A stretch of DNA of 64,000 bases from assembly GCA_964624065.1 (NCBI GenBank), contig CAZUWF010000003.1, positions 89,471-153,470 of the forward strand. The letters are read 5' to 3'. Every line of letters begins with the position of its first letter. The stretch's first letter is position 1. The notes beneath the pieces are model-generated. The model did not search any database and was not told the DNA's origin. It saw only the letters and a program-made list of their open reading frames with translations. The position numbers were made by a program, and so were the translations under genes. The stretch comes from an uncultured Bacteroidales bacterium (GTDB lineage Bacteria > Bacteroidota > Bacteroidia > Bacteroidales > UBA7960). Of this stretch, positions 18,599 to 32,374 are shown one piece after another.

Positions 18599-18632
18599 CC
18601 AAAAAAAAGAAACCTGCTTGTTGGCAGGTTTC
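18599..18632 (-). terminator. Rho-independent terminator closing the sulfur/Hdr-like operon
   Basis: On the minus strand: GAAACCTGC-caacaa-GCAGGTTTC followed by T8. It lies 24 nt after the stop of the QmoC-like gene. Confidence 0.75.
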
Positions 18633-18655
18633 TGGCTGTATAACATATTAGCCAC

Positions 18656-19705
18656 CTATGTTGTAGTTTTCAATTTTTCGAAATACATTGCAAAGGACCT
18701 ATACAAGAAGTGCGTCCATTTGCCGAAAGGGACTATAATTAGAGCCCACTGAACAAGTACCGTCAAATGAAAAAGGTATAGCCAAATATTGGTTTCAATA
18801 AGGTTTAAATCAATCATGGTTCTGACCAAGAAAGCCGAGAAAGCCATCATAAGCAACCAAATAACGAAAAACCAATCTGATGGCTGCGAGAACTTGCTCT
18901 GCTCCTTGTTTTTCTTTATGCGGTCTTTGACAAAAACGGCGGTGAGGCCGAAAAGAGTAATGCTCATAACGTACCCCAAAAGAACAACAAAGGTATTTGT
19001 AGTTCTGAACCAATCTAGTGCTACCGTAGTAAGCAGTAGTCCAAGATAACCCAGCACTATAATCAAGTGCATGAGCCACCGCGAATAGCTATCGTTGCAC
19101 TTTAGGGTTCTTTTTTGGGTAAACATATGCTCGATCAAGTCTTTGAAACCCAGAATATAGTTCGACAACTTGATTTTTATGCCAGGTTTAAGTATGATAA
19201 AGTACCACATACGAGCTAGGTTGGGGATGAATATTAGAGTAAAAACACCAATTATCGCCCACATTTCAAATTTATGTCCTGCGCCTATAATTGCATCAGG
19301 GTCAAAGTTTTTTGACGAAGCAAAGAAAACAACCCCAATTGCAACCAGCAAGAAAGCCACGATTGTAAGGGGAAGTGATTTGTATAGGAGGCCAGAAAGC
19401 CCGGTCCAGTCGTATTTTGCAGTTAGCCAGCGGCGTATTGCCATCATCAATTCTCCCGGATTGGCCTCCCTGGGGCAATTGGATGCGCAATCGCCGCAGT
19501 AATAGCAGAGCCAGGGATCAAGCGATGATTTTAACTGATTTTCCAGACCCAAAACAGAGTATCTGACAAGAGAGCGAGGGTATGCGTGGTTTTTATCTGT
19601 AAGAGAACAAATGGCAGTGCAGTTACCGCAATTATAACAAGCATTGAAATCATTGGCGCCAAACTTTCTTAATTCTTCGCCAAAATATGGGTTAACTATT
19701 GACAT
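18656..19705 (-). CDS. QmoC/HdrE-like membrane subunit: N-terminal 2x[4Fe-4S] ferredoxin module fused to a ~6-TM (NarI/HdrE-like) domain
   Basis: CYNCGNCTAICS and CYYCGDCASNCPREA cluster motifs, followed by six hydrophobic helices carrying His residues (AGHKFEMW, RWLMHLII, LYLFHLTV, KWTHFLY). The start lies 4 nt after the upstream stop. Confidence 0.7.
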   Translation of the reverse strand: MSIVNPYFGEELRKFGANDFNACYNCGNCTAICSLTDKNHAYPRSLVRYSVLGLENQLKSSLDPWLCYYCGDCASNCPREANPGELMMAIRRWLTAKYDWTGLSGLLYKSLPLTIVAFLLVAIGVVFFASSKNFDPDAIIGAGHKFEMWAIIGVFTLIFIPNLARMWYFIILKPGIKIKLSNYILGFKDLIEHMFTQKRTLKCNDSYSRWLMHLIIVLGYLGLLLTTVALDWFRTTNTFVVLLGYVMSITLFGLTAVFVKDRIKKNKEQSKFSQPSDWFFVIWLLMMAFSAFLVRTMIDLNLIETNIWLYLFHLTVLVQWALIIVPFGKWTHFLYRSFAMYFEKLKTTT

Positions 19706-19709
19706 GGCT

Positions 19710-21908
19710 CTATTTTTTCATTTTGTAGGTGTAGTACTCTTCGTCTTCGTCCATTCCATCGGGCACAACAAGGCTGTACTTGTTCATCGTCATTAGGTGG
19801 TACATAACCGTTTGCTTGTCTATGCCAGTATTTTCTGCAATCTCTGATACCGTTTTGCTCGAACCATTGATTGCTCCTGAAATGGCTTTCCAAACCTGCG
19901 GGTATTCCTTCATGCTCAAGGCCTCTTCTATCAATCCATCTTCTGCAGATTTCTGGGTTTCTGATAATTCAACCATACCTGCAAAGCCGTCAATCATTCC
20001 TTCTATTTCCTTGTTGGTGTATTGAATGATTTCTATTGCATCTTCGGGGCAGACGGGGGCACAAATGCCGCACCCAGAACAGGTTGCCTTGTTTACCGTT
20101 GCAATTTCCTTGTCGTTTACAAGGGTTCTCTTCAACGAGTCGTAGTCGCACACCTCGGCACACTTGCCGCACCAGGCACATTTGTCTGAATTAATTCTTG
20201 CTATAACCGGAGGGATTGAAATGGTTCCGGTTTTAATCAAGGAACTTATCTTGGAAGCCGCCGCCAATGAAGATTGGACCGATTCGGTAATGTTGCGGGG
20301 CCCTTGGCACGAACCGCCAATAAACACACCTTTTATTACCGTTTCCACCGGTTTTAGTTTCGGGTGTATTTCGTTGAAGAACTTGTCGTTGCCAATTGGA
20401 ATCTTGAAAATTTCCGATATTTCTTGGCTGTCTTGCCGTGCAACCATCCCTGTTACCAAAACTACCAAGTCGGCTTCAAGCTCAATCTCCATTTTTGAGG
20501 TAAGGTAATCCTTTACTTTTATTGAAATGGAATTGCCTTTTGATACGAGTTTCGGAGGTTCTTTTTCTTCGAATTTTATGAAAATATCGCCTTGCGAAGA
20601 GGCCTTTTGGTATAGAAGTTCTTGTTTTCCGTAAGTTCTTACATCCCTGAAAAGGTGGAAGGATTTCAATCCCGGAAATTTTTCGATCGAAATTAAGGAC
20701 GAATGGATTGCAGCCGAGCAGCAATAACGCGAACAATGCTTGTTTTCGCCATTGGTTTGCCTGTTGCCAACACAATATATGTAAGCCACCCTTTTTATTT
20801 CCCTGTTTTTATATTTTAGCGAAACCTCGCTAACTTCGAGCAACCGCCGGTAGTGGGGAAGTGTGATCACATTGTCTAGTTCCTCATACCCGAATTCGCC
20901 TTTGGCAGGAAGGTAGCTGTCAAAACCGGTAGTTACCAAAACTGTACCTGCAATCAGGCTGAGATGTTCTACCCTTTGGTGAATGTTAATGCAATTGGAA
21001 TACTTGTCGAGGTATTCTTTTTCGTCCTTCAAAGCCTCGGCGTCAACCACGGGAATATCGGGCAGGGCCTCCGAATAGTTCTTGTAAATTGCCTTGCGGG
21101 TAGTTAATCCGAAATTGAAAGGGTCGGGTAGGTTTACCGGACAATCCTCAATGGCTTGGTTTATGTCGCAGCCATCCTTGTGCCAGGTAACGTACCTTGG
21201 CCTAATACTAATGTTGACGTTGAAAGAACCAAGGCTTCCGGTAACCTTTTCGATTTTTGCACCGGTAAAAAGGCTAATGTTCTTCTCGGCCTTCATTTCG
21301 TCGTAAAGGCGTTTTATTACTTCCTTCCCTTGTTGGTCACCCATAAAAAGCTTTCCAACCTGTGCAACCGGACCCCCAACAAAGTGGTCTTGCTCTATTA
21401 CGTAAACCTCGTTGCCAAGGCGAGCCAGCGATACGGCAGCACGCATTCCGGCAACACCAGCGCCTACTACAAGTACGGATTTCTTGGCAGGAACCTCAAT
21501 GTTTTCTAACGATTCCGAATGAGACACCCTGTTTATTCCGGCCCGGATGAGCCCCACTGCCTTTGTGCTGGCATCCATTGGCCTGTCGGAATGGGGCCAC
21601 GAACATTGCTCCCTAATATTTACCTGAACGTAGTTGGAGGGATTCAGACCCGCCCTTTCGGCCACGTTTCTAAATGTATGGAGGTGCAGCTTGGGAGAGC
21701 AAGAGGCCACCACTATTCCATCAAGTTTTTTTTCCTTAATGTCGTTTATCATTATGTTTTGGCTTGAATCGGCGCAAGCAAACATAATATCTGTTGATAC
21801 TTCAACTCCTTGATGATCTTTCAACAACCTTCCAATTTCCTCCACCCTAACGTAGTCGGATATGTTTCCCCCGCAATGGCAAATGTAAACTCCAATTTTT
21901 TCTTTCAT
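19710..21908 (-). CDS. HdrA-like (QmoB-like) flavo-iron-sulfur protein with C-terminal 2x[4Fe-4S] and a terminal winged-helix-like segment
   Basis: HdrA N-terminal domain IGVYICHCGGNISDYV..VVASCSPKLH..NIREQCSWPH, FAD fold VLVVGAGVAGMRAA, and CSRYCC. Ferredoxin motifs CAWCGKCAEVC and CSGCGICAPVCP. The C-terminal tail SKTVSEIAENTGIDKQTVMYHLMTMNKYSLV resembles an ArsR/MarR-type wHTH. Confidence 0.75.
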   Translation of the reverse strand: MKEKIGVYICHCGGNISDYVRVEEIGRLLKDHQGVEVSTDIMFACADSSQNIMINDIKEKKLDGIVVASCSPKLHLHTFRNVAERAGLNPSNYVQVNIREQCSWPHSDRPMDASTKAVGLIRAGINRVSHSESLENIEVPAKKSVLVVGAGVAGMRAAVSLARLGNEVYVIEQDHFVGGPVAQVGKLFMGDQQGKEVIKRLYDEMKAEKNISLFTGAKIEKVTGSLGSFNVNISIRPRYVTWHKDGCDINQAIEDCPVNLPDPFNFGLTTRKAIYKNYSEALPDIPVVDAEALKDEKEYLDKYSNCINIHQRVEHLSLIAGTVLVTTGFDSYLPAKGEFGYEELDNVITLPHYRRLLEVSEVSLKYKNREIKRVAYIYCVGNRQTNGENKHCSRYCCSAAIHSSLISIEKFPGLKSFHLFRDVRTYGKQELLYQKASSQGDIFIKFEEKEPPKLVSKGNSISIKVKDYLTSKMEIELEADLVVLVTGMVARQDSQEISEIFKIPIGNDKFFNEIHPKLKPVETVIKGVFIGGSCQGPRNITESVQSSLAAASKISSLIKTGTISIPPVIARINSDKCAWCGKCAEVCDYDSLKRTLVNDKEIATVNKATCSGCGICAPVCPEDAIEIIQYTNKEIEGMIDGFAGMVELSETQKSAEDGLIEEALSMKEYPQVWKAISGAINGSSKTVSEIAENTGIDKQTVMYHLMTMNKYSLVVPDGMDEDEEYYTYKMKK

Positions 21909-21930
21909 GATAATTCTTATGTTCGTTGGA

Positions 21931-24696
21931 TTATACGGGTATTTCTCTTTCTACCAGCTTCATGTAGCTCGCTGCTTCGGTGGCGGCGCATCCTGCCGAG
22001 AGGATCGAATCGGGAATGTCTCGTGGACCGGCAACCGTTCCAGCCATGAAAACACCTTCAATGGAAGTGCGGGAAGGGCTGACAAGTTCATCAACCTGTT
22101 TCACGTAATTTAGTTCGTCCAGCTCAAGGGTTTGCTTTTTGAAACTGCTTGCAATCTCATTGTTTGGTAATGCACCAATTGACAAAACTACAAGGTCATG
22201 TTTTGCTTCCTTTAGCTTGCCAGTAGTTACATCTTCGTACCTCAAAACAAGGTCGCCACTACCGTCTTCCTTTTCATTGATTTGTGCAATCTTACCCTTG
22301 ATCATATTAACTCCCATCCGTTTTGATTGCTGCATGAATTCTTCGTAACCCTTGCCGAATGCGCGAAGGTCTATGTAGTAAATGGTAATGTCGGCAAGGG
22401 GTAGGGCACCCATCAAAAGCTGCGCCTGCTTTATGGAATACATGCAGCAAACCTGTGAGCAAATTGGATTATTGGTGCATTCGCTGCTACAAGGTCTGCT
22501 GTTTTCGATTGACACATCGCGCGAGCCGGTGCAAAGCACGTAGGCTACGTTGCTTGGAACCTTTCCATCGCCAGGTCTCAAAACGTTGTTGAATGGTCTT
22601 GTTGGGGCAATTAGCCTTTCCATTTGAAGGGCGTCAATCACGTTGGGATAAGTGCCAAATCCATACTCTTTTTTTCCCGACGGTGGAAATAACCTAAAGC
22701 CTGAGGCCAAGATTACCGACCTGACGTCAACGTCGTGGATTTCGGTTTTTTGGGAGAAGTCAATGGCTTCGGCCGGGCAAGCGGCGATGCATTGGTGACA
22801 TTCGCGACAGTTGCTGCAATCGAGGCACCTGCTTGTGCTATCGAGAACCTCGACCTCGGTAAAGGTGCTTTCAACTTCATCAAAATCTTTTATGCGCACG
22901 GCAGGGTCGCGGTGCGCCTGTTTTGTTTGTGGCTTGAATTGAATGTTGGGACGGCTCAAAACCTTTGCGGTATCAACCGCAGGCAGCTTGTCCCCAGCTT
23001 CGTAATCTTCGATGTTTAGGCCTGCCAGGAACTTATCGATGTAAAATGCCGCCTTCTTTCCCAGTCCGGCTGCTTCGATGATTGTTGAGGCTCCAGTAAC
23101 AGAGTCGCCGCCTGCAAAAACATAGGCGAGTGATGTTTGAAGGGTTTTTTCGTTTACTACAATGGTGCCGTTTTTGTTGAGGTTTAGCTCGCTTTCGAAA
23201 ACATCGGTTGAGGGGTTAAGTCCCACCGCCTCGATAACCCAATCTACTTTCTCTGTGTATTCGGAACCTTTAACTTGAACCGGTCTCCTCCTACCACTTT
23301 CATCGGGTTGGCCAAGTTCCATCTTAGCCAGGGTTACCCCTTCAAGTTGCCCGTTTTTGCCCAAGAATCTTATTGGATTTCGCAGGAGCAATAGCTTTAC
23401 ACCCTCTTCTTCCGCCTCTTTTATTTCGGGGGCAAAGCAAGGCATTTCTTCACGGCTACGGCGGTAAACCACCGTAACTTCGGCCGCACCGAGACGCACC
23501 GAGGTCCTGGCGGCATCAATTGCTGTGTTTCCACCACCGATAACCATAACTCGCTTGCCCTTTAGCGCGTTGGTTTTCTCTTGTATGGAGTCACGCAAAA
23601 AGTCGAGGCACGAGACCACCCCGTTCAATTCCTGCCCTTCTATGTTTAGCTTTGTGGTTTTGTGGGTTCCCACAGCAACGAATACCGCATCGAACCCATC
23701 TTTTTTCAACTTTTCTATACTTTCTACCTTGTGGTTTACCACAGTTTGGACTCCAAGGGATGTTACGTTTTTTACATCCCTTTCAACAATGTTTTTCGGA
23801 AGCCTGAACTCGGGCAGGCTCAAACTCAACATTCCTCCCAGAATGGGAGCCGCCTCAAAAATTTTAACCTGATGACCTTTTAAGGCCAAGTGGTAGGAGG
23901 CTGTCAATCCTGATGGCCCTGAGCCGATTACTGCAATTTTCTTACCTGTTGGTTCTTTCTTTTTAACTGCTGGTGGTTCGGGATACTTTTGGTAAAAATG
24001 GTCTGCGAAGAAACGTTTGGTTTTGCGTATGTCAACCGTGCCCTCGAGCAGGCTACGGGTGCATGACGACTGGCAAGGCGCGTAGCAAGCCCTCCCGAGG
24101 CTGCCCGGAATAGGAATGTCTTCCATGTGCAGCTTCATGGCCTCATCGTACTGGCCGTTTCGAACCAACGAAACATAACCGTAAGCCTTTGTACCCCCGG
24201 GGCATCCGCCAATGCAAGGTGCGGAGGTGTCTTGCCTGTCTATGTTGGCAATTCGCGGGTTTGCAAGGTTGAATGGTATGTAAGCCACCTTGCGAGCCGA
24301 AAGGTTCAGGTTGTAATCATCGGGTCTTACCTCTGGGCATACTATTTCGCAACTTTCGCACCCCGTGCAATTTTCGGCAATCACGTACCTTGGCTTCTTA
24401 ATTGCTCTTACCTTGAAGCCCGATTCGGTTTTTTCCACCTCTTCAACAGTGCTGTTAAGCATTGTGGTAATATTTGGATGCCTGGCTGTTTCCGACATTT
24501 TCGGGGTGGTAATGCAGGCTCCGCAGTCGAGGGTTGGAAAAACCTTGCTCAATTGAATCATTTTTCCACCAATCGACAACTGCTTTTCTACCAGAAGCAC
24601 TTTGTAATCCATTTGGGCAAGGTTGAGAGCCGCCTCTTGTCCGGCCACACCGCCGCCAATCACCAGGGCGTCAAATTTTGTCTTTTTTGTCAGCAT
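21931..24696 (-). CDS. HdrA-like flavoprotein with an embedded GltD/NfnB/SudA-like NAD(P)H-binding oxidoreductase module
   Basis: HdrA part: ALVIGGGVAGQEAA..KVFPTLDCGACI..CTGCESCEIVCP ... CSQVCCMYSIK..IDLRAFGKGYEEF..GVFMAGTVAGPRDI. Inserted part: KKIAVIGSGPSGLTASYHLA..GGML..LPEFRLPK, KRVMVIGGGNTAIDAART..YRRSREEMP and VFAGGDSVTGASTII, typical of glutamate synthase small-subunit-like proteins. Confidence 0.8.
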   Translation of the reverse strand: MLTKKTKFDALVIGGGVAGQEAALNLAQMDYKVLLVEKQLSIGGKMIQLSKVFPTLDCGACITTPKMSETARHPNITTMLNSTVEEVEKTESGFKVRAIKKPRYVIAENCTGCESCEIVCPEVRPDDYNLNLSARKVAYIPFNLANPRIANIDRQDTSAPCIGGCPGGTKAYGYVSLVRNGQYDEAMKLHMEDIPIPGSLGRACYAPCQSSCTRSLLEGTVDIRKTKRFFADHFYQKYPEPPAVKKKEPTGKKIAVIGSGPSGLTASYHLALKGHQVKIFEAAPILGGMLSLSLPEFRLPKNIVERDVKNVTSLGVQTVVNHKVESIEKLKKDGFDAVFVAVGTHKTTKLNIEGQELNGVVSCLDFLRDSIQEKTNALKGKRVMVIGGGNTAIDAARTSVRLGAAEVTVVYRRSREEMPCFAPEIKEAEEEGVKLLLLRNPIRFLGKNGQLEGVTLAKMELGQPDESGRRRPVQVKGSEYTEKVDWVIEAVGLNPSTDVFESELNLNKNGTIVVNEKTLQTSLAYVFAGGDSVTGASTIIEAAGLGKKAAFYIDKFLAGLNIEDYEAGDKLPAVDTAKVLSRPNIQFKPQTKQAHRDPAVRIKDFDEVESTFTEVEVLDSTSRCLDCSNCRECHQCIAACPAEAIDFSQKTEIHDVDVRSVILASGFRLFPPSGKKEYGFGTYPNVIDALQMERLIAPTRPFNNVLRPGDGKVPSNVAYVLCTGSRDVSIENSRPCSSECTNNPICSQVCCMYSIKQAQLLMGALPLADITIYYIDLRAFGKGYEEFMQQSKRMGVNMIKGKIAQINEKEDGSGDLVLRYEDVTTGKLKEAKHDLVVLSIGALPNNEIASSFKKQTLELDELNYVKQVDELVSPSRTSIEGVFMAGTVAGPRDIPDSILSAGCAATEAASYMKLVEREIPV

Positions 24697-24713
24697 TCTG
24701 TGTTCCTGTTAGA

Positions 24714-25157
24714 TTAGTTATCAATTGCCTTAATCCCGCCTGCCATTTCTGTTTCAATATCGCCCAGCTCGAGCAATATTTCGCTGAAGGCCTCCATATG
24801 TCCGGCAAACGGAACCGCGCAAACAGAGCAAATGGCTGCCATTCTGATCCGCTTCGGACTAATGTTGTTCTGTTTCATTATAGCCTGAGATCGGGTAATG
24901 ATATCGTTTGTGAAATCAGGACATTTATGGCTGTATGAGCATTCATGACCATCGGCGGCAATGAAAACACCATCGAATTTTTGCTTGAAAGCGTGCATGA
25001 TCCACCTTGTTTTTATACCTGAGGAGCAGGGCAGGTTGATCACGTAAACTGACGGTGAATAGTGTACCTTGCGCAAACCTGCCAGGTCTATTCCGGGATC
25101 AGAAATCTTATCGGTCGAAAAAACCAATATTCTGGGTTTATAACTTTTGTCGGCCAT
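24714..25157 (-). CDS. MvhD/FlpD-like iron-sulfur subunit (methyl-viologen-reducing hydrogenase delta-subunit family)
   Basis: 147 aa. ILVFSTDKISDPGIDLAG..VINLPCSSGI..FDGVFIAADGHECSY and the overall Cys pattern fit the FlpD/MvhD family. It lies immediately upstream of an HdrA-like gene. Confidence 0.75.
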   Translation of the reverse strand: MADKSYKPRILVFSTDKISDPGIDLAGLRKVHYSPSVYVINLPCSSGIKTRWIMHAFKQKFDGVFIAADGHECSYSHKCPDFTNDIITRSQAIMKQNNISPKRIRMAAICSVCAVPFAGHMEAFSEILLELGDIETEMAGGIKAIDN

Positions 25158-25220: not shown

Positions 25221-25472
25221 TTAAGCTTTTCTAAGGTACAGCCGCGAAAAACTGTCCTCGTCAACAAAGCCAAGAAACTCGTGATCCATCTTTTGGCACC
25301 ATTTGGGTATGTCTCTTTTTGTCCCGGCATCGGCCGAGAGTACCTCCATCACCTCGCCCGATTCAATGTCGCCAATTCCTTGTTTTGCTGCCAGTAGTGG
25401 TCCTGGGCAGGCTGTTCCTCTTGCGTCGATTTGTTTTGCTACTGTTAGTGCTTTTAATTCTTGGGATGTCAT
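25221..25472 (-). CDS. TusA/SirA-family sulfurtransferase (cytoplasmic sulfur carrier)
   Basis: 83 aa. IDARGTACPGPLLAAKQ carries the CPxP active-site Cys motif. GEVMEVLSADAGTKRDIPKWC is family-typical. Confidence 0.85.
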   Translation of the reverse strand: MTSQELKALTVAKQIDARGTACPGPLLAAKQGIGDIESGEVMEVLSADAGTKRDIPKWCQKMDHEFLGFVDEDSFSRLYLRKA

Positions 25473-25504: not shown

Positions 25505-25918
25505 TTAGACCAAAAAGTGGACGTCGGCTTCTTTTACCGCATCAATATATTCGCCAATTCCGATGATATCGTCAACCATATCAATGAAATCTTCGATCTT
25601 TGAGCCTCCCCAAATTCGGCCGGCAAGGCTGCAAACGTAAATTTTTACGTTTGTCATCTCCCTGGCCATTTCGAAGTACTCCTTCCAGGTAGGGCTGTTT
25701 AGTTCCTTGAGCTTGTCAATGCAGGCTTGAAGGTTTTCGTTGTCTTCGCTAAGGTACTCCCTGCCGTTTTCGTTACCTTTTACAAACCATTGAGCCGCTT
25801 TTAGGTGAACGTAAACTTCCACATCCATATCTTCGGCTGCGGCCCCGCTTAGCAAAACACCAGCGAAGGTTAGCTTGTCAAGCCCACCCGAAAACAATCC
25901 TATACACATTTTTGCCAT
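25505..25918 (-). CDS. DsrE/DsrF/DsrH-like family protein
   Basis: 137 aa. MCIGLFSGGLDKLTFAGVLLSGAAA and the conserved-Cys segment VKIYVCSLAGRIWG fit the DsrE-like family. Confidence 0.65.
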   Translation of the reverse strand: MAKMCIGLFSGGLDKLTFAGVLLSGAAAEDMDVEVYVHLKAAQWFVKGNENGREYLSEDNENLQACIDKLKELNSPTWKEYFEMAREMTNVKIYVCSLAGRIWGGSKIEDFIDMVDDIIGIGEYIDAVKEADVHFLV

Positions 25919-25943: not shown

Positions 25944-26444
25944 TTAATCTCCACATCCACCTGATGCCTTTTGTGTGGGTGCGCTAGCTTGTTGAGAACC
26001 TGACCCTACTTCAACCTTTTCGGGAAAAGAAAGCTGCCAGTTTTCAAATCCTCCTTCAAGCACCCTTACATCGCCATATTTCATTAGCCTTAGGTTTTTT
26101 GCCGAAAGGGCCGATCGTTGATGGGTGTTGCTGTATAGCACCACGGTTTGTCTCCTGTTCGAAAGAAGTTTCGAGAACTCCAGGGTTCCCCTTGGAATGT
26201 TTATTGCTCCAGGAATATGCCCTGCTTCAAACTCCTCGGGTTCTCGCACATCTATTACTGATAATGGTGCCGTGCCCAATTCCATCAATTGGTTCACCTC
26301 TTCGGCCACAACAAAATCAACGTCTTTCAATGCGGCTTCGAGCATAGTATTTGTGTTGCTGTAAACGGTTTTGTCTGGATTGAAGCATCCGGACAACACA
26401 AATGTCAAGATAACCGCCGACAGGATTAAATTTAGATTTTTCAT
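25944..26444 (-). CDS. Rhodanese-like lipoprotein lacking the canonical active-site Cys but ending in a ...ASGGCGD tail
   Basis: Lipobox VLSGC. Rhodanese fold (VIDVREPEEFEAGHIPGAINIPRG). The active-loop position reads VVLYSNTHQRS, with Ser where Cys is expected. A low-complexity linker precedes the C-terminal SGGCGD-stop (nt 25947-25964). Confidence 0.75.
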   Translation of the reverse strand: MKNLNLILSAVILTFVLSGCFNPDKTVYSNTNTMLEAALKDVDFVVAEEVNQLMELGTAPLSVIDVREPEEFEAGHIPGAINIPRGTLEFSKLLSNRRQTVVLYSNTHQRSALSAKNLRLMKYGDVRVLEGGFENWQLSFPEKVEVGSGSQQASAPTQKASGGCGD

Positions 26445-26464
26445 CTTGTCAAGATTTTGAAGAC

Positions 26465-27283
26465 CTATTTTGTTTTATACTCGTTCCAGCCCCCGTCGTA
26501 TATCTTAATGTTACGATAGCCAAGACCCTTCAAAGCAAGGTAAACAGTGCCCGTTCGCGCACTAGAAGTACAATAAAGAATTATCTCCTTATCTTTGACG
26601 ATCTTGCTGTCTGCCAAAACTTTTTCGATTTCAGCTTTGGTTTTCAGCTGAGATTTTGCTTCGTTAATGAAGCTTTTGTTTTCCACATTAATTGAACCAG
26701 GGATGTTGCCAGCCTTGTGTTCGTTAGGTGCCGAAACATCGATAATTATGGTGCCGGGATTATTTAGCTTCCCATTTACATAAGCGTATTCGACAAATAT
26801 TGACGGCTTCAACTTTGGAGTTAAGGTTATGGGCGTGGGGGTTACGGGGTTCCGCCCTACCGCCCCACGGGCTTCCCTCCAAGCCGTCATATGACCATCA
26901 AGAATCTTGACCTTATTGTACCCGAGATAGTCGAGCACCCAATACAGGTAGGTTGAGTAAACATACCTTCCATTGTCGTAGATAATTATGGTTTTTGCAG
27001 GATCCACTCCCTTCGTGCCAAGGACTTTTGCAAGCTCGGCAGGGCTATTGAGCAAACCTTCAATTGTTCCGGGCTTGCATAGGGCTTTGTATTCGATGTT
27101 AACCGCATTTTGAATGTGCACTTTTGCAAAGTCTTGCGCGCTTACGGTGGCAACAAAAACAGTGTTGGCATCGCCAACCAGCTTAACTGCATCACGGGCA
27201 GAAATTATGTCAAACTGAGCATTTGCCGAGGCAAGGGCCAACACCAAGATTATTGTGTTTCCAAATTTTCTTAAATTGTCCAT
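26465..27283 (-). CDS. Exported tandem-rhodanese sulfurtransferase (thiosulfate sulfurtransferase-like)
   Basis: Signal peptide ..ALASANAQ and two rhodanese domains. Catalytic loop ILYCTSSARTG in the second domain. GHIQNAVNI/GNIPGSINV motifs. Confidence 0.8.
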   Translation of the reverse strand: MDNLRKFGNTIILVLALASANAQFDIISARDAVKLVGDANTVFVATVSAQDFAKVHIQNAVNIEYKALCKPGTIEGLLNSPAELAKVLGTKGVDPAKTIIIYDNGRYVYSTYLYWVLDYLGYNKVKILDGHMTAWREARGAVGRNPVTPTPITLTPKLKPSIFVEYAYVNGKLNNPGTIIIDVSAPNEHKAGNIPGSINVENKSFINEAKSQLKTKAEIEKVLADSKIVKDKEIILYCTSSARTGTVYLALKGLGYRNIKIYDGGWNEYKTK

Positions 27284-27295
27284 TTCAAAAATCGA

Positions 27296-28315
27296 TTAAA
27301 ATTTTGCTTGCAATTGAACCACAAAACGGTCATTATTTATCTCAGTGGGTTTTTCTGCCTTGTACAGGTAGTTGACTTGCAATCTCGTCCAATCGTTGAA
27401 GAAGTAGTTTAGGCCGAAAGTCATAGTGCTTTCCTTGTAGTTTTGGTCGTTACCCGAGTCGAAGAAATCAAATTTAAAAACCGGTTCAACGTTCCATTTT
27501 GTTTTGTATGAAACTGCCGCCCATCCACCATTTCTTTCTTCTCCAAGTACAATGAGCTCGCCCCCGCATCCACCGCCTAGGTCCCTGTTGTAGTCGCCCT
27601 TGTCGTAAATGTACTCGCCCATCAACGAAAACCCTTGGTATTGAGCCTTAAGTTCGGCACCAATTGTTGTGCGGGTGTCGGTATTGTTGTTGTACGAAGG
27701 GTACGAGCCGCGAAAGCTACCTCCAACTTGGACAAAGTCAAGTGGCCTGAACAACACTCTTGCCACCAAATCCTTTTTTTGGTTGTTGTCAAAGCGCTTC
27801 AAGCCACTTCCGTTCATTATGCCCAATTGATACTGCAGTTTAGTGGAGTTGTCACCCCCCATAAAAACCAAACCGAAATCGCGAAACGGCGCCACGGTTT
27901 GCAACACTGCGGTAGAGCGGAAAATTGTTGGCATATCGTTACAGGCAAGGTTGGTCTCAAATCCGAAAGGAGTTTTGAAGGTACCCACCGAAACCCTGGC
28001 CCATTTAAACCTGTTGTAAGAAATGAAGGCATCCAGCAGGTAGGGGTTGTTGTTAGCGTCCAAGAATGGGCTTAGCTCAACAACGGCATAAAAGGAAAAG
28101 TCGTAGGGGATTGCTCCCTGAACGCCAAGCCTAACCCTTTCGAAAGAAAAGGAAGTTGTAGTTTTCGGGTCTTTTACCACCGCATCAAATTGAGATTGTA
28201 TGAACCCAAACACCGTAACGCCTTCTTCCGAGGGTGCGTCTCCGCACCCTTGTGCCGAAATTCTCGGTACTGCAAAGGCCGAAAGCAAGAGTATAACCAG
28301 CAGTGTTTTTTTCAT
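27296..28315 (-). CDS. Outer-membrane beta-barrel porin (porin O/P-like)
   Basis: The ATG at 28315 gives MKKTLLVILLLSAFAVPRISAQ. Alternating amphipathic beta-strand pattern throughout, with a C-terminal ..VVQLQAKF (terminal Phe). Confidence 0.7.
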   Translation of the reverse strand: MKKTLLVILLLSAFAVPRISAQGCGDAPSEEGVTVFGFIQSQFDAVVKDPKTTTSFSFERVRLGVQGAIPYDFSFYAVVELSPFLDANNNPYLLDAFISYNRFKWARVSVGTFKTPFGFETNLACNDMPTIFRSTAVLQTVAPFRDFGLVFMGGDNSTKLQYQLGIMNGSGLKRFDNNQKKDLVARVLFRPLDFVQVGGSFRGSYPSYNNNTDTRTTIGAELKAQYQGFSLMGEYIYDKGDYNRDLGGGCGGELIVLGEERNGGWAAVSYKTKWNVEPVFKFDFFDSGNDQNYKESTMTFGLNYFFNDWTRLQVNYLYKAEKPTEINNDRFVVQLQAKF

Positions 28316-28345
28316 TTTTCGAAGGGAATTTAAAATGTTATGCTG

Positions 28346-28353
28346 CAAATTTA
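28346..28353 (-). promoter_or_regulatory. Bacteroidota-type -7 promoter element (TAAATTTG) upstream of the porin gene
   Basis: The minus strand reads TAAATTTG (TAnnTTTG consensus) about 30 nt upstream of the porin ATG. No clear TTTG -33 element is present. A C8/T6 tract lies just upstream. Confidence 0.3.
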
Positions 28354-28393
28354 TTGGTTAAAAAAGGGGGGGGCGTTAATATGGCCCATTGAT

Positions 28394-29359
28394 TTAATTG
28401 GTTACGAAGGGTAGGTTTCTTGGCACTTCTGTACCGTGACCCCAACGATTTTCGGTCCAAGTTGAACTGGAGTGGTTAAGCTTGTTCATGCCAAACACCA
28501 TACTGTGGGCATTGTATCCAATTACCCTCAAAAAGGCAGAAACCGCTCCTGATGTTTGACCTGTATAGCAGTAAGTTACAACTGATTTTGCTGGGTTATT
28601 AAACTTAACCGTGTTATCGCCAACAAGCATTGGGCGTATTCTGAAAGATCCGGCAATGTGTCCGAAACCCAAAAAATGATTTTCGGGGAAGTAGTTGTTA
28701 ATAAAGTAGTTTGAAGGGTTGGCAAGCACCGCTTCTGGAGTTACGCTTTTGAATCCTTCGGCCAATACTGCTGCAACTCTGTTATTTAGAATTGTGGCCG
28801 GATCAGTGGAGTTGGAGGTAAATGTTGGGCTTGGATAGGTTAAATTTGTTGGTGCGGCGGCGGTAGACCAGTTGGCATGACCAGCTGAAATATTGCCAGT
28901 TAGGCTGTTCCATCCTCTGGGGTGGTTTGCAAATGTTGTATGCCAGGAGCTCATTCCCCACTTTAACGCTTGGGCTGTTAAATATCCTCTAAGTCTTAGT
29001 AGGCCTACCAAATAAGTTGCCTGGTTGCCAGAATAACAAACGACCAAAATTGGTTTGTCAGCAATGGCTGCCTCTGCCAGAACGTTGTTCCAGGCCACGT
29101 TTTTGGCGCCCTGAATTCTTCCTTGTGCAAAATCGGCGGGATCCCGAACGTCAATAATGTACCTTCCACTTAAATTGCCATCAGCGGGAGGCATTATTAC
29201 AAAGCCGCTAATAATTGTGTTGATGTCGAGGTTTTGAGCAACCAAATAGTCTGTTAATGCTTTTTGCGCATCAAATGTAGGGCCCTCGTCTTTACATCCG
29301 GTGAAAACAAAAGTTGCCACCAGGATGATTGTTAAAAAACTTGCTTTTAATTTTTTCAT
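28394..29359 (-). CDS. Double rhodanese-like lipoprotein, probably surface exposed
   Basis: The ATG at 29359 gives MKKLKASFLTIILVATFVFTGC-KDEG (lipobox followed by K-D-E). Two rhodanese-like domains have Cys loops VVCYSGNQA and TYCYTGQTS. Confidence 0.75.
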   Translation of the reverse strand: MKKLKASFLTIILVATFVFTGCKDEGPTFDAQKALTDYLVAQNLDINTIISGFVIMPPADGNLSGRYIIDVRDPADFAQGRIQGAKNVAWNNVLAEAAIADKPILVVCYSGNQATYLVGLLRLRGYLTAQALKWGMSSWHTTFANHPRGWNSLTGNISAGHANWSTAAAPTNLTYPSPTFTSNSTDPATILNNRVAAVLAEGFKSVTPEAVLANPSNYFINNYFPENHFLGFGHIAGSFRIRPMLVGDNTVKFNNPAKSVVTYCYTGQTSGAVSAFLRVIGYNAHSMVFGMNKLNHSSSTWTENRWGHGTEVPRNLPFVTN

Positions 29360-29448
29360 TTTAGTAGGTTTTAGGTTGGGTTCGTAAATTTTTTTGTGTT
29401 GGCTTGGAAATTCGCAGAACCCTTTAATCAAATCTCCTCGCTGTTTTT

Positions 29449-29937
29449 TTAGTCTCCGCAGCCTCCGCTTGTTTTGGCGGCAGGTTCATTTTTTTCTATC
29501 TCGGGATCCCAACTAATTATTCCACCTTCAAGGTTTTTGACGTTGGTGTAGCCTAGTTGTTTGAGGGTTAGGGCTGCAAGAATTCCCCTAAAGCCCTTTT
29601 GGCAATAAATGATTATTTCGTTACCTCTTTCGGGTTCGTAGAAAAATTCACCCTCCCAGTAGATGCTGTCGTTTATTTTGAATTCTAGCAACCCCCTTGG
29701 GATGTTAAACGCTCCGGGGATGGACACTTGCTCGAATTCCTTTACTTGCCTCACATCTATAAGGTAAAAGTCTTCTCCAGTGTCAATCTTTTCCCGCAGG
29801 TCAACAACGGTAATTTGCTCCACGAGCGATTTGTGTGCGTTAGCAATTTCTTCACCGTTTTCGAAAATGGCCGTGCAGGAGCCTGCAATTAGCGCCACCA
29901 AGGCAAGGCCGATTAGTATTTTTGTGGTATTCTTCAT
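29449..29937 (-). CDS. Rhodanese lipoprotein with a catalytic Cys and a ...TSGGCGD C-terminal tail
   Basis: Lipobox IAGSC. LIDVRQVKEFEQVSIPGAFNIPRG. Catalytic loop IIYCQKGFRG. A linker precedes the C-terminal SGGCGD-stop (nt 29452-29469). Confidence 0.8.
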   Translation of the reverse strand: MKNTTKILIGLALVALIAGSCTAIFENGEEIANAHKSLVEQITVVDLREKIDTGEDFYLIDVRQVKEFEQVSIPGAFNIPRGLLEFKINDSIYWEGEFFYEPERGNEIIIYCQKGFRGILAALTLKQLGYTNVKNLEGGIISWDPEIEKNEPAAKTSGGCGD

Positions 29938-29950
29938 CTGGAGTCTTGTT

Positions 29951-31165
29951 TTAGTAAGCAGTGAACCTTCCGGTTTTCTCGTTCCACTTTACAAACCAGT
30001 ACCATATCAACAAAATGCAAACAACCACCCCAAAAGCACCGGAGTAGCCTATGTAATCTGGCAAGAACATTTTGAAGCCAGCCTGATGGGGGATTATTTT
30101 ATTGACTAGCGGCACTATTGCCTTGTTTGATAAAGGCATTATTAGAATAAATGCCAATGCCGAGAACCAAAGCTTAACCTGACCCTCGCCAACGCGCCAA
30201 AGGGTTCCAGCAGCGCAACCCCCTGCTACGGTCATTCCTAGCCCGAATATGAAACCTCCTATCAAGGCCTTCGCCCAGAAATGGGAGAAAACCCAAGTCA
30301 TTTCCTGAGTTCTAATTCCGGCATCTCCAATGCCAATTCCGAAGTACTTGATGGCAGTGAAGCCAAAAAGGGTAACCACCATACCGGCAATTATCCCTGT
30401 AGCTCCCGATGCCTCGCCGGTCATGAACGGATCGCGGAAGGCTTTGACGATACAAAAGCGTGATCTCTGGCTAATCAATCCCATTAACAGCCCGATAATT
30501 ATGTACCAAGACATAATTGGATTATTGGGAGCGTATGTGTAAGATAAAATTAAAATAAGTGCAAACACTACCCATCCTATATAAACCTGAGTTTTGCCCT
30601 TGGCGGGTTTTGCAGCGAGCCACGTGTAGCTTTTGCCCGAACTAAGCATCGGGAAGCGCTCCATTTCCCACATAAGGTACTTTAGAGCAACTATAACTCC
30701 AACAAAAAGTCCAACGGTAAAAATTATAGCCCCTCCCGAAAGTGCAGGAACTCCGCTAAAAAACGATGCTACGGTGCAACCCAAACCTACGGTTGCACCG
30801 ATGGCCATCAACCCACCGCCGATAAAACCCTTTGCCATTTCACCCTTTGGAGGCACCCTCAGGGCAAATTCTTTTGAGAAAAGTGCTCCGATAAATGAGC
30901 CTACGATAAGCATTAAGGCTAGCATGGCAAAGATGCTGGAGCCCATTGGTGTGGTGCCTTCAAAGGCCGAAAAGCCAAGAAGCCCGTAAAGGTTCTCACC
31001 CCAGTTGTTTATCCCTCCACTGGCACCCCAGGGGCTGTTAATGGCAAAAAGCACAATATTAAGCGCCCCAAGAATTACGGCTCCAACCCAAACAGGCCAG
31101 TGTTTTGCAAAGAAAGTGGCCCAAAGGTGACCGAAAATCCCCGTTTCCTTAGGTTTTTCTGACAT
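29951..31165 (-). CDS. YeeE/YedE family inner-membrane sulfur (thiosulfate) transporter
   Basis: 404 aa and polytopic. Two half-repeats carry conserved Cys-containing Gly-rich segments (GATVGLGCTVASFFSG and TVAGGCAAGTLWRVGEG). It is adjacent to a TusA-like gene, as in known YeeE-YeeD/TsuA-TsuB pairs. Confidence 0.85.
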   Translation of the reverse strand: MSEKPKETGIFGHLWATFFAKHWPVWVGAVILGALNIVLFAINSPWGASGGINNWGENLYGLLGFSAFEGTTPMGSSIFAMLALMLIVGSFIGALFSKEFALRVPPKGEMAKGFIGGGLMAIGATVGLGCTVASFFSGVPALSGGAIIFTVGLFVGVIVALKYLMWEMERFPMLSSGKSYTWLAAKPAKGKTQVYIGWVVFALILILSYTYAPNNPIMSWYIIIGLLMGLISQRSRFCIVKAFRDPFMTGEASGATGIIAGMVVTLFGFTAIKYFGIGIGDAGIRTQEMTWVFSHFWAKALIGGFIFGLGMTVAGGCAAGTLWRVGEGQVKLWFSALAFILIMPLSNKAIVPLVNKIIPHQAGFKMFLPDYIGYSGAFGVVVCILLIWYWFVKWNEKTGRFTAY

Positions 31166-31174
31166 AGTTGCCTC

Positions 31175-31411
31175 CTAGTTCTTTTTTATAAGGTACCTGA
31201 ACACTCCGCCTTCCAATGTTTCTCTCAACAAAAGGTCGTTTCCGTATTTTTCGCACCATTTGGGCAGGTCAGAATTGGTGCCGGGGTCGGTTCCAAGCAT
31301 CTCAAGCACCTCGCCCGAAGACAAACCCTTCATGGTTTTTGCTAGCTTTAGCATTGGCATGGGGCAGCTTAGACCTTTACAGTCAAGCGTTTGGTTGATT
31401 TGAATTTCCAT
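31175..31411 (-). CDS. TusA/YeeD-like sulfurtransferase, first gene of the operon
   Basis: The ATG at 31411 gives MEIQINQTLDCKGLSCPMPMLKLAK (CPxP motif) and GEVLEMLGTDPGTNSDLPKWC. 78 aa. It ends 9 nt upstream of yeeE. Confidence 0.85.
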   Translation of the reverse strand: MEIQINQTLDCKGLSCPMPMLKLAKTMKGLSSGEVLEMLGTDPGTNSDLPKWCEKYGNDLLLRETLEGGVFRYLIKKN

Positions 31412-31532
31412 CTTTTGGGTATTTTGTGTTGTTAAAAAATTCACAACATGAAATTCCTGCAACTTTTTTAATTGGGCAATTTTTTTTCATTGTTTTGCAA
31501 CCATATGGCAGGCTGATTTGTTATAACAAAAA

Positions 31533-31678: not shown

Positions 31679-32374
31679 ATGGAGTATTCGATTTTTGCCA
31701 ATAGTTGCAAGAATGTTGTTCCCAGCTGCAGGTGTTTTGATAAACTCACGCCTCCGGAAATGGACCTGATTCTTGCCAATCAAGTGGAATTGTCTTTTAA
31801 AAAGGGCGAAATTATTTGCAAGCAGGGTTCTTTAGCCCCGCATATAATTCTTCTAACCAAAGGCTTGGTTAAGGCCTATATCGAAGGGGGTAATTCCAAT
31901 TTGGTGCTTAAAATCATTTCGGGCGGGAAATTCATTGCCCTCTCTTCTGCCATGGAGGGGAATAGCGTTTTTAATTATACCGCCCAGGCCTATGTTGATA
32001 GCACAGTAATGTTTATAGACATAAATGTTTTTAGGGGAGTTTTAAAGTCAAACCCCCTTTTTGCTACCGAAATATTCAATGTTCAAAGTGGAAATGCTAG
32101 GCAAATCTATGGTCGGTTTTTTTGCCTGACCAAAAAGCAAAGTTATGGCCGCCTCGCCGACTTGCTGCTTTGTCTGGCCGACAGTGTCTATTACAAAACC
32201 GTTTTTGAACTGGAGCTAACCAGAAAAGAGCTTGCCGAGCTATCAGGATTGTCGCAGGAGAGTGTGGTTAGAATACTCAAAAACTTTAAGGACGATAGGC
32301 TAATCGGAACCAGCGGAAAGCAAATAGAAATTATTGAGTACGAGAAATTGCAGCGAATTAGCCAAAAGGGCTAA
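31679..32374 (+). CDS. Crp/Fnr family transcriptional regulator with an N-terminal Cys cluster
   Basis: A cNMP-binding-like beta-roll (FKKGEIICKQG...LVKAY) and a C-terminal HTH (TRKELAELSGLSQESVVRILKNFKDDRLI). N-terminal Cys residues C10, C17 and C19 (NSCKNVVPSCRCF). Confidence 0.85.
   Translation: MEYSIFANSCKNVVPSCRCFDKLTPPEMDLILANQVELSFKKGEIICKQGSLAPHIILLTKGLVKAYIEGGNSNLVLKIISGGKFIALSSAMEGNSVFNYTAQAYVDSTVMFIDINVFRGVLKSNPLFATEIFNVQSGNARQIYGRFFCLTKKQSYGRLADLLLCLADSVYYKTVFELELTRKELAELSGLSQESVVRILKNFKDDRLIGTSGKQIEIIEYEKLQRISQKG

Follow-up and report, generated by a model that had tools for sequence, protein, structure and literature searches.

Exported rhodaneses with a C-terminal Gly-Gly-Cys tail, candidate swinging-arm sulfur carriers of Bacteroidota and other FCB-group phyla

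The window analysed here is a 64,000-nucleotide stretch of DNA from an uncultured Bacteroidales bacterium (GenBank assembly GCA_964624065.1, contig CAZUWF010000003.1, positions 89,471 to 153,470 of the forward strand). It encodes two small rhodanese-like proteins, RhdA and RhdB, which end in the same hexapeptide, Ser-Gly-Gly-Cys-Gly-Asp. On balance we favour the view that both are exported, lipid-anchored rhodaneses in which a flexible tether of about 16 (RhdA) or 28 (RhdB) residues is tipped by a reactive, sulfur-carrying Gly-Gly-Cys(-Gly-x) arm. The tail cysteine is assigned this role because the tail is conserved, outlasts the active-site cysteine of the rhodanese domain, apparently swaps with selenocysteine (Sec) in relatives and is coupled to sulfur genes. 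From the sequences compared, it is best read as a sulfur-carrying arm that is not specific to YeeE, the membrane transporter encoded next to RhdA.

Two putative rhodanese lipoproteins with an identical cysteine tail

29449..29937, minus strand: RhdA, 162 residues; lipobox, single rhodanese domain, tether and cysteine tail
25944..26444, minus strand: RhdB, 166 residues; lipobox, single rhodanese domain, tether and cysteine tail

The N-terminus of RhdA carries a lipobox-like motif (IAGS-C21) and that of RhdB a lipobox (LSG-C20), each after a short hydrophobic stretch. This pattern is the sole criterion by which the two are taken as putative lipoproteins, and neither has a lipoprotein surface-export-like signal after the lipobox. 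Pfam detects a rhodanese domain in both proteins (RhdA: PF00581, 4.6e-18, residues 45-143; RhdB: 1e-21, residues 47-137), and the best sequence match of the rhodanese domain in the PDB is 6mxv (1.8e-25). The active-site loop of RhdA is intact (IIY-C112-QKGF-R117, of the Cys-X4-Arg form), and C112-QKGF-R117 is invariant in 29 of 29 family members. In RhdB, Ser105 (nt 26130-26132) aligns with the catalytic Cys (VVLY-S-NTHQR), and the loop is not that of an active sulfurtransferase. RhdB contains only two Cys residues, that of the lipobox and Cys164 of the tail. The tail Cys is the sole obvious thiol of RhdB after lipoprotein processing, as had been proposed in the original prediction, which was made from the sequence of the window alone.

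RhdA ends in ...EKNEPAAKTSGGCGD-stop, with the tail S-G-G-C160-G-D at nt 29452-29469 (Cys160 at nt 29458-29460), and RhdB ends in ...QQASAPTQKASGGCGD-stop, with S-G-G-C164-G-D at nt 25947-25964 (Cys164 at nt 25953-25955). The tether comprises 16 residues after W143 in RhdA and 28 residues, rich in Ala, Pro and Gln, after W136 in RhdB. The two proteins share 32% overall identity and are identical over their last six residues, which are encoded by different codons at 5 of the 6 positions (tca ggt gga tgt gga gat versus agc gga ggc tgc gga gac). This difference points to selection on the peptide rather than to a recent copy of the DNA, and recent gene conversion as the source of the identical hexapeptide is ruled out. 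In the AlphaFold2 model of RhdA, built from a 32-sequence alignment, pLDDT exceeds 90 for residues 30-150 and is 43-50 for the tail, which is predicted to be disordered. Pfam matches and translations agree with the original description of both open reading frames (ORFs) as lipobox-containing single-domain rhodaneses with a linker before an identical SGGCGD-stop, the 29449 copy having kept its catalytic loop.

The tail is conserved in both families, and the first condition that the original prediction named as refuting it therefore does not hold. The search with RhdA returned 34 proteins; all 28 of lipoprotein type, down to 39% identity, end in (G)GC, GGCG, GGCGG or GGCGD, and the more distant, non-lipoprotein matches have no tail. 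Among the best 120 of 185 matches to RhdB, the lipoprotein-type proteins end in SGGCG, SGGCGG or SGGCGD in 100 cases out of 100; the cytoplasmic rhodaneses of 126 residues that rank lower have no tail. Gly-Gly precedes the tail Cys in 25 of 28 RhdA-like proteins and in all 84 RhdB-like proteins measured. The catalytic position of the RhdB family (n = 100) is occupied by Ser (77), Gly (9), Cys (8), Asp (3), Ala (2) or Asn (1), and the tail Cys is present in every one of these sequences. Two RhdA-type proteins also have Ser at the active-site position, with a putative tail Sec in one (L094, 433-1047) and a tail Cys in the other (L095, 3034-3573). Tether length, counted from the domain's last conserved aromatic residue up to the tail Cys, is tightly constrained, with a median of 16 residues in RhdA-like proteins and a range of 27-29 in RhdB-like ones. 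The intervening sequence varies and abounds in E, K, A, P, S and G.

The occurrence of the ending is strongly non-random. When the 5,414 ORFs of at least 60 residues in the window and in 85 fetched loci were compared, the ending G[GSA]C(G.)? was present in 44, made up of 42 rhodanese proteins and 2 unlabelled ORFs whose ends are dissimilar. Searched with a profile, 1.84 billion cluster representatives (clusters at 50% identity) yielded 45,304 rhodanese-like proteins, with (G)GC-type tails in about 33 of the best 150 clusters. These include tailed lipoproteins of two and three domains (P0275, 401 residues, ...SSGGCGG; P0281, 312 residues, ...EEVGGCG). The fetched loci add membrane-anchored rhodaneses ending in ...RRKKKGAATAGGC and a two-domain rhodanese ending in ...SDGGC. 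The tail is modular: the same ending occurs on one-, two- and three-domain and on membrane-anchored exported rhodaneses.

Named sources of the tail are Bacteroidota (Bacteroidales, Rikenellaceae, Lentimicrobiaceae, Paludibacter, Draconibacterium, Ancylomarina euxinus M1P and Carboxylicivirga sediminis), Cloacimonadota and Krumholzibacteriota. No tail is present on the nearest rhodaneses that the genome scan (L023, L026-L085) turned up in Proteobacteria, Nitrospirota, Chloroflexota, Actinomycetota and other phyla, and within this sample the tail is confined to phyla of the FCB group. The database search for GGCG-type tails and their context that had been suggested at the outset thus recovered tailed exported rhodaneses in three phyla, in a cassette that occurs with three different sinks (see below). 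Literal-string searches of the literature found no description of a Cys-tailed rhodanese, in keeping with the initial impression that the combination of domain and tail was undescribed. A second class of GGC-tailed rhodanese is found in two of the same genomes. There, an apparent separate operon (L011, 17377-20477, minus strand; L004, 19236-20450, minus strand) encodes PsrC/NrfD, two half-size YeeE-like proteins and two signal-anchored rhodaneses, whose basic tails end in ...RRKKGAAIAGGC and ...KKKSKATAGGC.

Apparent selenocysteine at the tail, in YeeE and in the porin

One match of the representative search, P0374, ends in ...APADGG. Its DNA reads GGT GGT TGA GGA AGT TAA, that is GG-U-G-S-stop (U, Sec), and the TGA aligns with the Cys of Cloacimonadota-type proteins ending in ...SSGG-C-G. 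A metagenome scan with the P0374 subfamily found four further distinct sequences with TGA at the tail Cys codon. In-frame TGA codons were also seen in the genes for YeeE and for a porin of the Porin_O_P family encoded in the same type of locus:

L087, 597-608: TGA at the tail Cys codon, then GS and stop
L088: tail GG-TGA-G-TAG
L090 (L091 and L092 identical in this region): tail SSGG-TGA-D-TAG
L093: tail DSGG-TGA-D-TAG
L094: tail SSGG-TGA-D-TAA
L016 8213-9440, L089 4721-5945 and L094 3-470: Sec-YeeE candidates; reading TGA as a stop makes the gene appear split
L025 3939-5000, L090 2659-3696 and L096 2458-3510: Porin_O_P selenoprotein candidates, in Cloacimonadota-type loci

At the tail, five diverged lineages of Cloacimonadota type carry an in-frame UGA aligned with the Cys of homologues; the Cys itself is encoded in L089 and L095 (L096 is identical there). 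Each tail TGA is followed by a hairpin of 6-8 bp with an apical loop AGUU, GUU or GGU that starts 22-26 nt past the U of UGA. The stems differ in sequence (AAAAGUG/CACUUUU, GGGUGA/UCACCC, CCACAUA/UAUGUGG and CACAUG/CAUGUG). Of the Cys-encoding loci, L095, L025 and L016 have no hairpin at this position, and L089 has a different hairpin at a similar position. The regions resembling a selenocysteine insertion sequence (SECIS) were folded one sequence at a time, as the MAFFT alignment put the hairpins out of register. The Sec-type RhdA proteins are 53-67% identical to one another and interleaved with Cys types (the Sec-type L090 and the Cys-type L089 are 83% identical), which points to repeated switching between Cys and Sec. 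Taken together, the DNA sequences strongly suggest that Sec is inserted at the tail.

In YeeE, the motif GMT(L/I)AGG-U-AVG has its in-frame TGA at the position of Cys317 of the window protein, with 88 conserved residues downstream (L016, L089, L094). Sec in YeeE/YedE is already catalogued, with the motif GUxSG (PMC13188914), and the YeeE TGA therefore serves as a positive control for the approach. In the porin, the in-frame TGA replaces the codon of a GGG-C motif (position of Cys250), and about 95 conserved residues follow, to the C-terminal ...QVKF. Since conserved residues continue past the TGA in both the porin and YeeE, read-through would be required for a complete protein. The porin TGA is followed by hairpins whose UGGU or AGGU loops begin at nt 20; over all SECIS-like hairpins, loops start 20-26 nt after UGA and the stem sequences differ. 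Exchange of Cys for Sec is a signature of a reactive chalcogen nucleophile, and its apparent occurrence at the tail suggests such a residue there. A 2026 review of selenoproteomes lists five rhodanese Sec forms (motifs UxxS, UxxG, CxU, UxxG and UxxxxU); a C-terminal GG-U rhodanese form and the word 'porin' are both absent from it (PMC13188914). No NCBIfam model reaches its cut-off for the tailed rhodaneses or for the porin.

Operon, porin and alternative sinks

RhdA and RhdB are encoded in a single minus-strand operon of 13 genes, running from 31462 to 18656. The order is TusA, YeeE/YedE, RhdA, Rhd2lipo, porin, Rhd2, RhdB, DsrE-like, second TusA, MvhD/FlpD, HdrA-like with GltD insert, second HdrA-like and QmoC-like:

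31679..32374, plus strand: Crp/Fnr-family regulator, divergent, upstream of the operon
31175..31462, minus strand: TusA-family cytoplasmic sulfur carrier, first gene of the operon
29951..31165, minus strand: YeeE/YedE-family inner-membrane sulfur transporter (PF04143, 9.5e-46)
28394..29359, minus strand: Rhd2lipo, two-domain rhodanese lipoprotein; lipobox, Cys in both domains
27296..28315, minus strand: Porin_O_P porin (Pfam), between the RhdA and RhdB genes
26465..27283, minus strand: Rhd2, two-domain periplasmic rhodanese of SseA/3-MST type; signal peptidase I type A-Q site
25505..25918, minus strand: DsrE-like cytoplasmic sulfurtransferase, directly downstream of RhdB
25221..25472, minus strand: second TusA-family protein
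18656..25157, minus strand: Qmo/Hdr-like electron-transfer module, the following four genes
24714-25157, minus strand: MvhD/FlpD
21931-24696, minus strand: HdrA-like flavoprotein containing a GltD-type NAD(P)H module as an insert
19710-21908, minus strand: second HdrA-like protein
18656-19705, minus strand: QmoC-like subunit, 2x[4Fe-4S] and membrane domain, last gene of the operon
18608-18633: strong terminator-like hairpin, closing the operon

The porin gene, which stands between the two tailed genes and encodes three invariant Cys, was overlooked in the original prediction. The cysteines lie in the motifs AQG-C24, right after the signal peptide, NLA-C125 and GGG-C250-G. Among 120 homologues (48-89% identity), AQG-C24 is kept in 118, and NT[AP]-C-[NS]GL (C125) and GGG-C (C250) in all 120. 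The AlphaFold2 model (pLDDT 85.8) is a 16-strand barrel. Foldseek relates it to the anion-selective porins Omp32, OprP and OprO (TM about 0.7); a sequence search of the PDB gave no matches for the porin. Loops were placed on the model by strand alternation from a periplasmic N-terminus. On this placement C24 would lie in a flexible periplasmic N-terminal segment (pLDDT below 50), C125 in the long β5-β6 loop, corresponding to an L3-type constriction loop, and C250 in the β11-β12 loop, the extracellular L6. Three invariant Cys are unusual for an outer-membrane barrel: the Geobacter porin ExtI has a single reported Cys, as against three here, and outer-membrane proteins are described as typically poor in Cys (PMC5877670). 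Alternatively, a disulfide may join two of the porin cysteines, or the N-terminal one may carry a lipid.

Of the two remaining rhodaneses, Rhd2lipo retains a Cys in each domain (VVC-YSG and TYC-YTG), and Rhd2 has the active site ILY-C238-TSSAR. The lipobox Cys of Rhd2lipo is followed by K-D-E, and most loci have C-K-D/E-D/E (CKDD, CKED) or C-S-D-K-E at this place, a pattern resembling the signal for surface export of Bacteroidota lipoproteins. Judged by this motif, Rhd2lipo is probably surface-exposed and a partner of the porin. In YeeE, C238 (SRF-C-IV), C317 (AGG-C-AAG) and C130 (GLG-C-TV) align with GRIC-F, AGGC-ASG and AGGC-NIG of the Spirochaeta thermophila YeeE (PDB 6leo). Relative to that structure the two halves of the protein are swapped, query 222-339 aligning with chain 6-113 and query 71-153 with chain 235-316; YeeE is colinear with the YedE/FdhT model. 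The NCBIfam scores are 141 bits for the YedE/FdhT selenium-metabolism model and 90 bits for TsuA, both below cut-off. The QmoC-like protein matches NF038018 over its full length (8.7e-43, below cut-off), and from its components the Hdr-like module looks like a quinone-linked complex of Qmo type. The first HdrA-like protein (21931-24696) is 921 residues long through its GltD-type NAD(P)H/FAD insert (NF009410, 2.4e-147); orthologues elsewhere have about 430 residues and no insert. No Rfam family matched in the window, and a tRNA scan of it found none.

The ORFs of more than 30 related loci were labelled by phmmer against the window proteins. This revealed a conserved envelope cassette, RhdA-Rhd2lipo-porin-Rhd2, with the RhdA-like gene first, and the Crp/Fnr regulator adjoins the system in nearly all related loci. 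The cassette occurs with three alternative sinks. The first, TusA-YeeE together with DsrE-TusA-MvhD-Qmo/Hdr-like genes, is found in the window, in Bacteroidales, Rikenellaceae and Lentimicrobiaceae (L001-L011), in Cloacimonadota (L016, L025) and in Krumholzibacteriota (L086). The second is of PsrABC type (molybdopterin oxidoreductase, FeS subunit and NrfD) and is found in Ancylomarina (L018, L021), Draconibacterium (L022) and L019. The third consists of an octahaem cytochrome c of the tetrathionate-reductase family with a cytochrome b, in Carboxylicivirga sediminis (L102) and L012; the two octahaem cytochromes score 577 and 569 bits against TIGR04315 (cut-off 375). In L102 (5159-10872) the cassette of tailed rhodanese and porin follows the cytochrome genes, and in L012 (7568-10519) the tailed rhodanese follows them alone, with no porin labelled.

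The end of the tail was compared with the acceptor genes for the RhdA orthologues of the window, L001-L025, L086-L096 and L102. RhdA proteins encoded next to YeeE always have one or two residues after the Cys or putative Sec (CG, CGG, CGD, UG, UD, UGS). Those not adjacent to YeeE end in Cys-COOH in 11 of 11 distinct sequences, of which 7 stand with Psr-type genes and 2 beside the octahaem cytochrome. That the tail end tracks the acceptor fits docking of the arm into the acceptor. The RhdB type occurs only in Bacteroidales loci of YeeE/Qmo type, always directly upstream of the DsrE-like gene (adjacency in L001-L011), and Cloacimonadota and Krumholzibacteriota have the RhdA type without the RhdB type. 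Thus the proposal that the two proteins are a donor/acceptor pair feeding YeeE was too narrow, since two phyla do without RhdB and the cassette can stand with PsrABC or the octahaem cytochrome instead. Three corrections are needed: the cassette is broader and serves at least three sinks, RhdB is specific to one lineage, and the porin is part of the picture.

Proposed sulfur transfer, rival explanations and significance

Taken as a whole, the gene content suggests an envelope system that takes up polysulfide, elemental sulfur (S0) or thiosulfate-derived sulfane sulfur. Rhd2lipo, probably at the cell surface, and the porin would bring polysulfide, S0 or thiosulfate-derived sulfur into the periplasm. 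Cys112 of RhdA would take sulfane sulfur as a persulfide and hand it to Cys160 of the tail, and the 16-residue arm would then swing to deliver it to an acceptor in the membrane or the periplasm. The acceptor in the window would be the Cys triad of YeeE. From there sulfur could pass to cytoplasmic TusA and DsrE and be reduced (or oxidised) by the Qmo/Hdr-like complex, linked to quinone and NAD(P)H. RhdB, because it has lost the active-site Cys, would serve purely as a carrier or adaptor through its longer, 28-residue arm. We infer in this scheme the loading of the arm as persulfide, the direction of transfer, the partners of the arms and the membrane in which each lipoprotein is anchored. More tentatively, and with doubts of our own, we consider that the whole operon may form a covalent chalcogen 'bucket brigade' across the envelope, in which sulfur from an insoluble or polymeric extracellular source is never free. 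Its outer half might lead from the surface rhodanese lipoprotein to the Cys/Sec of the extracellular GGG-C loop of the porin and on to the constriction-loop Cys, a path we regard as possible rather than probable. The inner half, which we put forward just as cautiously, might lead from the N-terminal Q-G-C of the porin through the Cys/Sec arms of RhdA and RhdB to the Cys/Sec triad of YeeE, and then to TusA, DsrE and the Qmo/Hdr-like reductase.

The closest functional parallel is SoxY, a periplasmic protein with a C-terminal GGCGG whose one Cys sits on a peptide 'swinging arm' and ferries sulfur intermediates from enzyme to enzyme (PMC6067878, PMC11237559); the original prediction had pointed to this arm. 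Most orthologues here end exactly in GGCGG (the window proteins in GGCGD), and the arm is likewise flexible. However, SoxY is a beta-sandwich whereas RhdA and RhdB have the rhodanese fold and are putatively lipid-anchored. With 16-28 disordered residues, the tether far exceeds that of SoxY in length, the Cys may be the last residue or apparently Sec, and the setting appears to be anaerobic reduction or uptake of sulfur compounds, not Sox oxidation. Pfam and NCBIfam give rhodanese-type matches only, with no SoxY domain in either protein. No SoxZ, SoxAX, SoxB or SoxCD was found among the 13 operon genes and the regulator, the part of the window scanned for Sox genes. Membership of the SoxY family is ruled out by the absence of both the domain and Sox partners in the operon. 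The idea of a rhodanese-fold carrier with a SoxY-style arm thus stands as the best-supported reading, by conservation, predicted disorder and apparent Sec, but as a likeness without kinship to SoxY.

Among rhodaneses, Sud of Wolinella succinogenes is a periplasmic polysulfide-sulfur transferase that hands sulfur to polysulfide reductase (Psr). Like RhdA it is an exported single-domain rhodanese (weak sequence match to PDB 1qxn, E = 1.8e-5), and RhdA orthologues adjoin PsrABC in Ancylomarina and Draconibacterium. Sud acts by way of the Cys in its active site, and we know of no C-terminal Cys tail, lipid anchor or dedicated porin for it. Geobacter sulfurreducens has a rhodanese lipoprotein gene (ExtH) beside a Porin_O_P-like porin gene (ExtI) and a Sec-using periplasmic polysulfide reductase (ExtKL, MccSep) (PMC5877670, PMC13510729). 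The window porin and Rhd2 match these families weakly and lie far below the cut-offs of the NCBIfam equivalogs NF040901/NF040900 (ExtH/ExtI): 48.1 bits against 150 for the porin and 49.6 against 200 for Rhd2. No Cys-tailed rhodanese is described in the Geobacter Ext system. The YeeE/YeeD (TsuA/TsuB) pair and the YTD (YedE-TusA-DsrE) module of sulfur disproportionators share with the operon a YeeE/YedE protein with Cys motifs, a TusA-like and a DsrE-like protein (PMC12998232), but are described without periplasmic tailed rhodaneses or a dedicated porin. Similar neighbourhoods have been noted in Desulfurivibrio dismutans (lipoprotein rhodaneses, porin and YeeE; PMC12142623) and in Cloacimonadota metagenome-assembled genomes (an Hdr/TST/TusA/transporter cluster, with sulfur oxidation proposed; PMC8542988). 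In these papers lipoprotein sulfurtransferases were proposed to help sulfur import; neither mentions a C-terminal Cys tail, porin cysteines or selenocysteine.

Several observations weigh against the sulfur-carrying arm or blur the evidence for it. RhdB is a lineage-specific addition, and in other phyla the system does not depend on it. Phylogeny confounds the correlation of tail end with acceptor, which is blurred further by L011, where two anchored rhodaneses ending in ...AGGC stand beside split YeeE-like genes and PsrC; this also weakens any simple rule by which Cys-COOH would mean Psr and CGG would mean YeeE. As for Sec, no Rfam model matches the putative SECIS regions, the tail hairpins are AU-rich, and the L087 hairpin, the one tested, is not thermodynamically exceptional (z-score against shuffles -0.47). 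At the tail no more than one or two codons follow UGA, which makes that case, taken by itself, a weaker one for read-through.

Four other explanations of the tail were weighed against the carrier arm. The tail Cys or Sec could be a resolving or redox nucleophile: by attacking a persulfide or polysulfide bound to the rhodanese active site, or to a partner, it would set sulfide free. Mammalian thioredoxin reductase offers the precedent: its C-terminal Gly-Cys-Sec-Gly tail shuttles reducing equivalents, moving between a buried site and an external partner. In both cases a flexible C-terminal extension bears a Gly-flanked Sec or Cys, and the putative Sec forms here end in GG-U-G or GG-U-D, the former resembling the GCUG tail. 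Sec substitution is typical of redox-active residues, and RhdA has both an active-site and a tail Cys. However, thioredoxin reductase belongs to an unrelated family with other chemistry (electron transfer, selenenylsulfide) and uses a Cys-Sec pair, not a single residue; RhdB, L094 and L095 lack the second Cys for a redox pair, and the operon encodes no periplasmic reductant or partner oxidoreductase. We consider a redox role unlikely. A system for selenium, tellurium or a thiophilic metal or metalloid, in which Se destined for a YedE-type importer would travel on the tail Cys as a selenotrisulfide or perselenide, seems improbable to us. The transporter does score higher against the YedE/FdhT model than against TsuA (141 versus 90 bits), and the porin and Rhd2 weakly match ExtI and ExtH of the Geobacter 'selenite/tellurite reduction operon', ExtI having been implicated in selenite reduction (PMC5877670). 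All these matches, however, fall far short of the family cut-offs. The partners belong to sulfur metabolism (TusA, DsrE, Qmo/Hdr-like, PsrABC and the tetrathionate-reductase-family cytochrome), and the enzyme of the Geobacter Ext cluster has since been shown to be a polysulfide reductase on which S0 respiration depends (PMC13510729).

In a structural role, the tail Cys would be joined through a disulfide or polysulfide to a cysteine of the porin, such as that of the N-terminal QGC, and would tether the lipoprotein to the porin as an assembly device. The porin does bear invariant Cys on segments that are probably flexible, and the title of a 2019 paper by Jahan, cited in PMC13510729, states that localisation of the Geobacter rhodanese ExtH depends on the porin ExtI. 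Yet apparent exchange of Cys and Sec at the tail, the porin loop and the central Cys of YeeE favours reactivity over a static link, disulfides would be unstable in sulfidic anoxic habitats, and the tail is also found on rhodaneses of L004 and L011, where no porin lies within the fetched stretch. We hold such a bridge to be decidedly improbable. That the motif is a C-terminal sorting or processing signal with no role in sulfur transfer is scarcely credible; the original prediction had named this as a refuting possibility. Gly-flanked Cys does occur in some C-terminal sorting signals such as MYXO-CTERM, but there the motif has to be followed by a transmembrane helix and a basic cluster, T9SS relies on a C-terminal domain (CTD) of about 80 residues, and Sec substitution would be pointless in a sorting tag. 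The anatomy of the tail rules out GlyGly-CTERM, MYXO-CTERM, PEP-CTERM and the T9SS CTD: the protein ends 0-2 residues past the Cys, and the preceding 16-28 residues are disordered and of low complexity. A flexible arm that carries sulfur on its terminal Cys is the explanation we retain.

Transport of poorly soluble S0 and polysulfide across the outer membrane to reductases is an acknowledged gap in anaerobes. The route of polysulfide across this membrane was stated as not known in the 2026 Geobacter MccSep paper (PMC13510729), and the same is stated for the outer-membrane step in proteomic work on sulfur disproportionators (PMC13490349). Across three FCB-group phyla, the genes described here offer a concrete and conserved apparatus that lends itself to testing: rhodanese lipoproteins with putative Cys/Sec arms, a porin with three invariant Cys, one of which apparently can be exchanged for Sec, and three alternative sinks. 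Cultured carriers exist for such tests in Ancylomarina euxinus M1P and Carboxylicivirga sediminis. Two selenoprotein forms uncatalogued in PMC13188914, a C-terminal GG-U rhodanese and a Porin_O_P selenoprotein, are suggested as well. Should the bucket brigade prove true, the porin would be a catalytic thiol/selenol-relay channel rather than a passive pore, and an outer-membrane selenoprotein in Cloacimonadota. On the best-supported reading, a peptide swinging-arm sulfur carrier is known in kind and its rhodanese scaffold is new; the principle of SoxY would thus extend to the rhodanese fold and to reductive sulfur metabolism.

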